The notes beneath the pieces are model-generated. The model was given only the letters and a program-made list of their open reading frames with translations, searched no databases and was not told where the DNA came from. This document shows positions 3,224 to 3,940 of a DNA stretch of 10,590 bases, piece by piece (the first letter of the stretch is position 1; the number at the start of each line of letters is the position of its first letter). Both the position numbers and the translations under genes were made by a program. This DNA comes from a virus (taxonomy: Duplodnaviria; Heunggongvirae; Uroviricota; Caudoviricetes): positions 1 to 10,590 of the IMG/VR virus record IMGVR_UViG_2617270966_000006; one strand, written 5' to 3'.

Positions 3224-3280
3224 CAATACAAACCGGTGGTGTCCTCTGCCGGTTTGACACTAATGAAAACATCTTTGCCG

Positions 3281-3309
3281 CTATCCAGCCATATGTAATC
3301 GCTGGATAG
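3281..3309. other. Perfect 9-bp inverted repeat with 11-nt spacer in an AT-rich intergenic region; possible terminator or operator
   Basis: ctatccagc (3281-3289) and gctggatag (3301-3309) are exact reverse complements. Followed on the plus strand by a T-rich stretch (tatttcgtatt). Confidence 0.3.
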
Positions 3310-3390
3310 TATTTCGTATTCAGAAATATAGCTGCTTATGGAGCAGTCAATCCTGCTTCCCCATCCGGGCAGGCAAATGAACCGGTATCA

Positions 3391-3684
3391 TTAGTCCGAT
3401 TCACGCTTTTGTAGAATCGTTCCCAGAATGCTATACAGCTCATTAGCCTGTTGCTCCATCATTGAGACGGAGGCTATACGGTGCAAAGTGATTTCAGGAG
3501 GTGGCACACCTCCATCTTCTTGCTGTGGAGGAAAAACATAAGATTTAATAAAAAAGTTGAAGCATATGAACTCTCCCGCACTCGAACTGTATTTGCAGGC
3601 ATCTGAATAATCGGAAAAATAATCATTATAGATTTCCGCATTTTCAATCATTTTTCGATTTCTCGTCGTTACATGATTGTCCAT
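3391..3684 (-). CDS. Hypothetical protein (97 aa), orphan gene transcribed divergently from com/mom
   Basis: Minus-strand ORF with good RBS (minus strand reads taagaggctgctATG, AAGAGG about 6 nt before the ATG). Lies in AT-rich DNA, suggesting foreign origin. No recognisable motif. Confidence 0.5.
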   Translation of the reverse strand: MDNHVTTRNRKMIENAEIYNDYFSDYSDACKYSSSAGEFICFNFFIKSYVFPPQQEDGGVPPPEITLHRIASVSMMEQQANELYSILGTILQKRESD

Positions 3685-3740
3685 AGCAGCCTCTTACGCT
3701 GGCAATTAACCAATTGACTTCTATAAATTAGTTGATTTGT

Positions 3741-3767
3741 TTGCTTTGCGGTATTCAAATGTACAAT
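3741..3767 (+). promoter_or_regulatory. Candidate sigma70 promoter directed toward com/mom
   Basis: TTGCTT (3741-3746), 15-bp spacer, TACAAT (3762-3767), inside the AT-rich divergent intergenic region 3685-3940. Pattern match only; other hexamer pairs are possible. Confidence 0.2.
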
Positions 3768-3872
3768 CATTCAGCACTTATGCGTTACAGCACCGTTTAA
3801 AATTAGTGATCAAACTCATAAATTTTCGCTAATGACATTTCGTGTTATTTGTTGTATCAATTAAATAAATCA

Positions 3873-3897
3873 AATCGATCGTTTTTGTCGATCGATT
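3873..3897. promoter_or_regulatory. GATC-containing inverted repeat upstream of com; candidate Dam-methylation-sensitive operator
   Basis: aatcgatcg (3873-3881), spacer tttttgt, cgatcgatt (3889-3897): a perfect 9-bp inverted repeat with a GATC in each arm (3877-3880 and 3890-3893). A third GATC lies at 3808-3811. By analogy, the Mu mom promoter is controlled through three upstream GATC sites. Confidence 0.4.
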
Positions 3898-3940
3898 GAG
3901 TGATAAAGATATCAACAACAAAGCAGGAGGTTATGCGGCC

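Follow-up and report, generated by a model that had tools for sequence, protein, structure and literature searches.

An exchangeable AT-rich cassette beside com/mom in a Mu-like prophage carries an orphan gene with distant relatives in a toxin-antitoxin-like operon

The subject of this work is an AT-rich island, next to the com and mom genes, in the window of 10,590 nucleotides (nt) that forms positions 1 to 10,590 of the IMG/VR virus record IMGVR_UViG_2617270966_000006 (Caudoviricetes), and in particular the orphan gene that this island carries in divergent orientation from com/mom. A first-pass annotation, made from the letters of the window, had flagged positions 3230-3900 as visibly AT-rich and as holding a 97-residue minus-strand open reading frame (ORF) together with several hairpins; for the ORF it proposed a dedicated regulator of the modification module, an immunity or antitoxin-like factor or an independent cargo gene, and for the hairpins a small RNA. 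As read from its sequence, the flagged interval is made of two adjacent features, a cargo cassette (3258-3831) and the com/mom control region (3832-3940), and this part of the window comprises the following elements.

2969..3223, plus strand: DUF826 gene (Pfam DUF826 E=1.2e-14, phrog_311), left flank of the cargo slot
3229..3256, no strand assigned: stem-loop between the convergent DUF826 and cargo genes, with 8-bp perfect arms extendable to 11 pairs
3258..3831, no strand assigned: exchangeable AT-rich cargo cassette of 574 bp, made of the orphan gene and its 3' and 5' flanks
3281..3309, no strand assigned: imperfect inverted repeat in the 3' flank of the orphan gene, with 11/12 pairs (92%) and a 5-nt loop
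3391..3684, minus strand: orphan gene, 97 amino acids, acidic (pI 4.7), solo and divergent member of the family here called X
3685..3831, minus strand: AT-rich 5' region of the cassette (GC 0.347), largely conserved between the window and the CI5 copy
3690..3695, minus strand: ribosome-binding site AAGAGG, 5 nt upstream of the ATG
3832..3940, plus strand: conserved com/mom control region, common to all cargo variants
3873..3897, no strand assigned: perfect palindrome AATCGATCG-N7-CGATCGATT, with 9-bp arms and two Dam GATC sites 13 nt apart
3941..4141, plus strand: com, zinc-ribbon translational activator of mom (Pfam Zn_ribbon_Com E=1.3e-12, phrog_6417/13819)
4095..4832, plus strand: mom, with a GTG start within com (Pfam Mom E=1.6e-77)

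The impression of AT-richness was borne out by calculation. The GC fraction of 3230-3900 is 0.392, against 0.510 for the window, which places the interval in the lowest 2% of all windows of equal length (671 nt), and no such window outside the interval drops under 0.413. The minimum (0.30-0.31) falls in the intergenic DNA at 3701-3900, and both the cassette (0.395) and the orphan ORF itself (0.398) deviate from the neighbouring genes (0.46-0.55), in support of the suggestion that this stretch is compositionally foreign.

The comparison with sister prophages defines the cassette by its edges. In strain M18 and in a Mu-like element borne by an Stx phage (Stx-Mu), homology with the window is lost at 3252-3257 and regained at exactly 3832, and the DNA in between is occupied by unrelated genes: a 175-residue zinc-ribbon/transmembrane (TM) protein in M18 and frameshifted fragments of ECs_4996 in the Stx-Mu element, the intact 154-residue ECs_4996 (phrog_26524) being found in the slot of Sakai Sp18. 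In Mu, gin adjoins com in the corresponding place, and every occupant of the slot is oriented leftward. The left bound is the terminator hairpin of the DUF826 gene, the last conserved rightward gene ahead of the slot and one found in all sister prophages; the right bound is the com/mom control region, which retains 92-95% identity with M18 and Stx-Mu despite the different upstream gene. Among 5426 complete Escherichia coli genomes, the com/mom module including its control region is present in 232 and the orphan cassette in 17-18 of them (~8%; the flagged DNA as a whole was found in 18), so that among close relatives the cassette is present, replaced or absent at the same boundaries. From these fixed boundaries, the differing occupants and the 17-18 against 232 genomes, it follows that 3258-3831 is an exchangeable cargo cassette, and the proposal of an independent cargo gene is therefore strongly supported. 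Neither a tblastn search of 50,697 phage records with the orphan protein nor a blastn search of the plasmid collection with the cassette gave a match. The heptamer CTAATGA occurs at both cassette edges (3260-3266 and 3829-3835), which may be chance; as a general exchange site this direct repeat was rejected, being missing at the cassette edges of M18 and Stx-Mu.

The orphan ORF is, judging from its pattern of substitution, a real gene, because the ratio of nonsynonymous to synonymous substitution rates (dN/dS) between the window and the CI5 copy of the cassette is 0.36 (Nei-Gojobori), with 15 synonymous changes among 39 where 20% are expected (binomial P=0.006), and because the frame is kept in a variant with 79% protein identity. 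This variant is the 100-residue form in CI5, whose cassette has 82.6% DNA identity with that of the window (a lineage diverged by 17%), and the frame is equally kept in all other variants, so the conservation in related prophages on which the first-pass annotation had made its proposal depend is found. Since residue 12, a methionine in the window, is a threonine in CI5, the conserved start is the first ATG (3684, 97 amino acids) and not the Met12 start called by PGAP (86 amino acids). The ribosome-binding site, earlier described as good, indeed lies at a suitable place before this first ATG, and the 5' region at 3685-3831 presumably holds the gene's own promoter. Two minus-strand hits of the promoter scan, at and inside the ORF start, were set aside as candidates, one of them requiring the Met12 start that is absent in CI5; the count of promoter-like sites in 2600-4200 is not above chance.

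The protein carries no recognisable motif, as the first-pass annotation had said: the orphan was without a match in Pfam, PHROG, NCBIfam, PADLOC and the sequences of the PDB, profiles built from 6-7 sequences of its family were without a match in domain and family libraries, and none of six X members matched Pfam at E<=10. The X proteins are acidic in five of the six lineages and have no conserved catalytic residues, and the orphan product can be described as a small, acidic, non-enzymatic cytoplasmic protein.

A search for remote homologues, which the first-pass annotation had recommended, proved productive only when carried out exhaustively. Word-indexed searches with the orphan returned E. 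coli and Shigella copies only, and the same search with the Yersinia member returned only itself; an exhaustive profile scan of 1.84e9 proteins found a single relative outside the E. coli group, P0015 from Yersinia enterocolitica, which has the length of the orphan and aligns over residues 6-92 (E=1.4e-4). In pairwise blastp the orphan is 26% identical to Ent_98 over 95 amino acids, 31% to Yer_97 over 80 and 27% to Eco_104 over 86, and Ent_98, Rao_98, Pan_100 and Eco_104 score between 1e-16 and 1e-34 against the family profile, all collinear and of the same length. Based on this full-length collinear similarity the orphan belongs to the X family; no other member is as divergent, and none of the others occurs alone.

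The relatives share an architecture. In lambdoid prophages the gene for P0015 follows closely on that of a cI-type repressor (the rexAB position), and it heads an AT-rich operon of 97, 95 and 123 codons with a strong terminator at its end. The 123-residue partner, called T, was traced into other genomes through 40 clusters and occurs there in two patterns: as the last gene of a three-gene cassette X-A-T (in Enterobacter, Raoultella, Pantoea, E. coli 98232 and Yersinia) and directly behind, and overlapping, a gene with a SocA_Panacea domain (PF13274; 5 loci). The genes of the X-A-T cassette overlap by 1-4 nt or sit 1-2 nt apart, and the cassette is seen in at least four different slots of prophages (downstream of cI, between the tape measure and gpM genes, in the nin/Q region and between tail genes; loci L007-L012 6001-6951, L032-34 2430-3372, L041-43 1930-2872 and L044 1973-2896), behaving as a mobile moron. 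E. coli 98232 (NZ_CP173446, L063 1844-2770) has a complete X(104 amino acids)-A(81 amino acids)-T adjoining pphA and IS3, in which the T gene of ~125 amino acids is an intact ORF that is unannotated in RefSeq. The T family is also found with single upstream genes of 155 amino acids and of 203-239 amino acids that bear the same C-terminal motif as A.

The ~41 C-terminal residues of A (FNFDL...ELDAWL) are common to A and the Panacea antitoxins (PanA), as detected by blastp and by hhalign (95.7%, E=9e-9). Panacea has been validated as an antitoxin domain of type II systems, neutralisation can be carried out by appended elements, with Panacea itself in an accessory part (the "linear neutralisation" described for PanA; PMC10440598), and accessory or conserved third genes are known in such systems (PMC8832971, PMC10440598). 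T is a candidate toxin because other genomes have it directly behind PanA antitoxin genes, and A (80-95 amino acids), with the same C-terminal element as PanA, may be regarded as an antitoxin-like neutraliser; X would then be an extra first component of the toxin-antitoxin (TA)-like cassette. The earlier idea of an antitoxin-like factor finds indirect support here, in that the only relatives of the orphan head this TA-like three-gene cassette. X was also considered as a split-off piece of Panacea, and this was rejected (hhalign probability against PanA 0.1%); the X members have no SocA_Panacea domain. In the window no A or T follows the orphan, whose 3' flank is 133-167 nt of non-coding DNA, and searches for a homologue or remnant of A or T beside it, in the window and in the sister loci, gave hits at chance level only.

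This arrangement can be compared with known three-component TA operons, such as omega-epsilon-zeta and paaR-paaA-parE. Similarly to these, the relatives of the orphan head an overlapping operon of accessory, antitoxin-like and toxin-like genes, and the pairing of T with PanA elsewhere, together with the PanA element in A, recalls PanA-PanT (PMC10440598). The differences are that X has no similarity to omega (ribbon-helix-helix), PaaR (helix-turn-helix, HTH) or Panacea, that it is acidic and not of DNA-binding type, and that in the window it stands alone, without A or T.

On the right side of the cassette, the control region has the elements of a mom promoter region. The arms of the palindrome at 3873-3897, which the first-pass annotation had correctly called perfect (9-bp arms, 7-nt spacer), are identical to those of AATCGATCGGTAATACAGATCGATT in Mu (L006 4174-4198), within the GATC cluster upstream of P_mom, and the site corresponds to the GATC pair found there; the 13-nt spacing of the two GATC sites is also seen ahead of com in Edwardsiella and Pantoea. 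With GATC at 3808, 3877 and 3890, there are three sites in 180 nt where 0.31 are expected (P=0.004), forming a Dam GATC cluster upstream of com/mom. The transcription of mom in Mu is under the control of Dam and OxyR, of the C activator and Fis, and of the divergent promoter momP2, which competes with momP1 (PMC3378877, PMC4287176, PMC2909390). The window is like Mu in its palindrome arms (AATCGATCG...GATCGATT), in having two GATC sites 13 nt apart upstream of com, in its AT-rich surroundings and in the overlap of com with mom. It is unlike Mu in the distance from the palindrome to the com ATG (43 nt, against 70 nt in Mu) and in its C-activator site, since no TTAT-N4-9-ATAA is found in 3685-3945 where Mu has TTATGCCCCAATAA (TTAT-N6-ATAA). 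Additionally, 3898-3920, between the palindrome and the com ribosome-binding site (AGGAGG, 3925-3930), is not conserved in CI5. Given the spacing, the lack of a C site and this unconserved segment, the geometry of the com/mom promoter must differ from that of Mu. A weak leftward element, TTGATA-17-(T/A)GTCAT, is conserved in all variants at 3860-3832, and, speculatively, it could serve as a momP2-like promoter for any cargo that fills the slot.

The hairpins of the interval, presented by the first-pass annotation as perfect inverted repeats and short stems, are of unequal quality. The stem-loop at 3229-3256 is strong (-16.7 kcal/mol, z -3.8 against shuffles), lies outside the cassette, where it marks the left edge of conserved DNA, and is kept in four lineages (window, CI5, M18 and Stx-Mu) despite sequence changes; its counterpart in CI5 scores as a minus-strand terminator with the tail TATTGTT, and the stem-loop probably ends transcription of both the DUF826 gene and the cargo gene, which converge on it. 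The repeat at 3281-3309 is not perfect, having one mismatch in 12, and it folds beyond shuffles on both strands (z -4.1 on the plus strand, with a TATTTCGTATT tail, and z -4.9 on the minus strand); it is possibly a terminator, or an insulator against read-through from late genes. The two stems at 3315-3329 (z -2.3) and 3349-3362 (z -1.2) are weak and hardly differ from chance, and the palindrome at 3873-3897 scores z -2.7/-3.8. In 2600-4200 there are 4 terminator-like sites, against 1.5 +/- 1.3 in shuffles. The cargo unit shows terminator-like hairpins downstream of the orphan, and on the promoter side only the weak conserved element at 3860-3832 (TTGATA-17-TGTCAT in the window). On the minus strand, the GATC palindrome with TGATTTATTT after it scores as terminator-like in both the window and CI5, and this site could block leftward read-in from host DNA, via mom, into the cargo gene.

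The explanation that we favour, with moderate confidence, is that the interval holds an autonomous cargo cassette. The product, a relative of the accessory member in a TA-like prophage module, would be a small factor that binds another protein, and not a com/mom regulator. In this mechanism the orphan would be transcribed leftward alone, independently of and opposite to late and mom transcription, and with such opposite, independent transcription it would probably be expressed in the lysogen. Its protein would probably bind a partner whose gene lies elsewhere; the most plausible candidate is a component of a toxin-antitoxin or abortive-infection module of the X-A-T type, and the benefit may go either to the lysogen (exclusion or anti-addiction) or to the phage (counter-defence).

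The first half of this explanation, the cargo cassette, has the anatomy of phage morons and cargo slots, such as rexAB downstream of lambda cI or gin beside com/mom of Mu: a compact AT-rich unit between conserved modules, with its own orientation and terminator-like hairpin bounds, present in some relatives and replaced by unrelated genes in others. It departs from them in that the consensus scan pinpointed no promoter for the cassette, and in that its single cargo gene stands by itself here but elsewhere belongs to a three-gene operon. A moron in a variable slot beside com/mom is a well-known kind of feature, and the X family and the X-A-T cassette appear undescribed in the libraries and papers that were searched.

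Several observations weigh against the explanation as a whole. Truncated alleles of the orphan exist (P0011-P0014), and the gene is dispensable in some strains. The orphan is 21-28% identical to the X proteins of the cassettes, so its function may have changed. Structure prediction, another check proposed by the first-pass annotation, gave two AlphaFold models of low confidence that contradict each other, one with a beta-hairpin plus a helix (predicted local distance difference test, pLDDT, 62.5) and one all-helical (pLDDT 56.8), and fold searches returned weak topology matches only. The consensus promoter scan found no consensus sigma-70 promoter in 3685-3831. T and A are assigned their putative roles as toxin and antitoxin solely from gene neighbourhood and the shared motif, and T, even as a 25-sequence profile, has no match in Pfam and PDB. 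Finally, a DNA search found the full X-A-T in 1 of the 5426 E. coli genomes, so that a target for action in trans is not evident in the usual host.

One more specific alternative, which we hold to be doubtful, is phage counter-defence, in which the solo X would mimic the accessory component of host abortive-infection modules of X-A-T type and keep the toxin neutralised during infection or induction, as part of a small anti-defence island at the prophage end with the anti-restriction enzyme Mom. Only the solo form of X is phage-borne and beside Mom, the orphan is homologous to a component of a TA-like cassette, its product is small and acidic, as are many protein-binding inhibitors, and it is stated in general terms that TA systems act in phage defence and that phages bear antitoxin-like countermeasures (PMC10440598). 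However, the gene is oriented opposite to early as well as late transcription, an unusual arrangement for an early-infection factor, X-A-T is very rare in E. coli, the evidence linking X to A or T is gene order rather than binding or control, and neither PADLOC nor any other source gave an anti-defence annotation.

A bolder form of this idea, to which we assign little probability, takes the solo X as a decoy or accessory factor that the phage carries and that works in trans on TA or abortive-infection modules of the X-A-T type, so that together with Mom the phage would possess two counter-defence functions and X-A-T would constitute a new three-component TA family. X might in that case silence the toxin, or disarm an incoming or resident module, and a leftward promoter of momP2 type within the shared control region could make its expression anti-correlated with that of mom.

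The orphan could instead be a lysogenic-conversion or superinfection-exclusion gene outside TA biology, a co-opted protein that protects or alters the lysogen via some other target. The rexAB-like slot downstream of cI is the classic place for exclusion genes expressed in lysogens, and it is in such a slot that the Yersinia and Pantoea relatives are found. The anatomy is that of a typical moron (AT-rich, in opposite orientation, flanked by terminator-like hairpins and variable among relatives), and the strong divergence of the orphan from the cassette X proteins points in the same direction. Against this, the protein lacks a signal peptide, a TM segment and any known exclusion domain, and at the cI-proximal loci X is always within the three-gene operon and never alone, so that we regard this alternative as unlikely.

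Quite improbable, in our assessment, is that the orphan is a decaying remnant, the functionless X left over from a former X-A-T cassette from which A and T were deleted. This would account for a solo gene whose relatives are all tripartite, for the truncated or frameshifted alleles mentioned above and for the narrow distribution; yet purifying selection on the orphan is significant (the dN/dS of 0.36 given above), its 133-nt 3' flank has no trace of A or T, and the gene is intact at 14/14 independent insertion sites and in the lineage that is 17% diverged in DNA.

The suggestion of a dedicated com/mom regulator, made divergently from the shared intergenic region and acting on P_mom, has been reduced to a very slight chance. 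It had in its favour the divergent layout with a highly conserved intergenic region, the strict physical linkage of the orphan to com/mom in E. coli and Shigella, the precedent of the divergent momP2 in Mu and the weak leftward element at 3860-3832. The co-occurrence check, however, goes against it: ~92% of the E. coli genomes with this com/mom module and an identical control region are without the orphan, as are Mu and all 19 Mom loci from other species, and the homologues of the orphan occur only in loci without com/mom. Moreover, the protein is acidic and gave no HTH, Mor/C or other DNA-binding match in Pfam or NCBIfam.

Least credible of all is that the hairpins form a small regulatory RNA to which the ORF is incidental, since, even with several stems folding better than shuffles and terminator-like sites slightly enriched, no Rfam family reaches E<0.6 (best E=0.63, well below gathering), the hairpins at 3281-3309 and 3315-3373, within the cassette, are not conserved in the CI5 copy, the ORF has coding-type substitutions and distant protein homologues, and the hairpins, including the conserved ones (convergent terminator and Dam sites), are best explained as terminators or insulators together with the Dam-site palindrome of mom.

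Under the favoured explanation of autonomous cargo, a slot with exact boundaries is defined in a widespread E. coli family of Mu-like prophages that includes Sp18 of O157 Sakai, where one and the same conserved com/mom control region, with its Dam sites, adjoins at least three different, unrelated leftward genes. An apparent ORFan becomes linked to an undescribed three-gene cassette, in which a candidate toxin swaps between Panacea antitoxins and a two-protein alternative, X+A; through this link an accessory component new to TA or phage-defence modules could come to light. Even if the cargo is ordinary, there are gains for annotation, namely the 97- instead of the 86-residue start, the palindrome as a mom regulatory region and the unannotated T in E. 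coli 98232. If the decoy acting in trans were true, the right end of this phage would place Mom, against restriction, and X, against TA-type defence, side by side, and the new three-component TA family would have a first component without a known fold.

The surroundings of the slot in the window include the following genes, taken from the ORF listing of the window and Pfam.

531-2585: SASA/DUF6645 esterase
2751-2933: DUF1378 gene
to 6651: lambdoid tip-attachment protein J, C-terminal two-thirds
6721-7320: Lom/Ail protein, downstream of J

The Com zinc ribbon gene overlaps mom, the window Mom is 78% identical to that of Mu, and the pair is sited at a prophage right end (4960). The gene order through mom is constant in every annotated copy of the flagged DNA, and the truncated host gene that follows mom varies by strain (citF, flgL, xdhA or hsdR, and J in the window); in 14 further sampled places the orphan was always in the same Mu-like context (14/14). 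The homology of the window to four independent insertions ends at exactly 4960. This variable host gene and the common stop show the region to be where a Mu-like transposable prophage ends on its right side, the element having transposed, in the window, into the J gene of a lambdoid prophage. E. coli JE86-ST05 and DLI.5a are examples of strains with this prophage. A sister element is labelled "inserted Bacteriophage Mu-like phage" in its GenBank record, and the relative of the window prophage in O157 Sakai is Sp18.

A number of further observations were made in the window and its relatives. The listed ORF at 4825-6651 is a chimera, with its first ~45 codons from the Mu right end followed by the C-terminal domains of J. 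The mom frame is open from 3900 (310 codons) and spans all of com, and in some public gene calls com is missing and "Mom" has 298 residues (L057, L059). The esterase (SASA/DUF6645)-DUF1378-DUF826 block (531-3223), typical of Stx and lambdoid phages, lies between the tail-fibre genes and com in this Mu-like lineage. The gin gene is absent from the window and is found upstream of the esterase in the Stx-borne relative (L005 1179-1721). In some sister elements a C5-cytosine DNA methyltransferase (PF00145, E=2e-42) replaces mom after com (L005 5110-6316, in the Mu-like insert of LC727895, and hit H62, strain SW070917), with com and the control region unchanged ahead of it, which suggests a Com-controlled modification module of Dcm type in those elements. 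Farther along the window there is a second AT-rich trough at 9300-9600 (GC 0.335-0.35), across which no ORF of at least 40 amino acids is listed. Between 7780 and 8800 the GC fraction is ~0.60, with a strong excess of A over T, and each strand has long ORFs in several frames, a pattern suggestive of a repetitive, low-complexity coding sequence, possibly a tail-fibre (Stf-like) repeat region.

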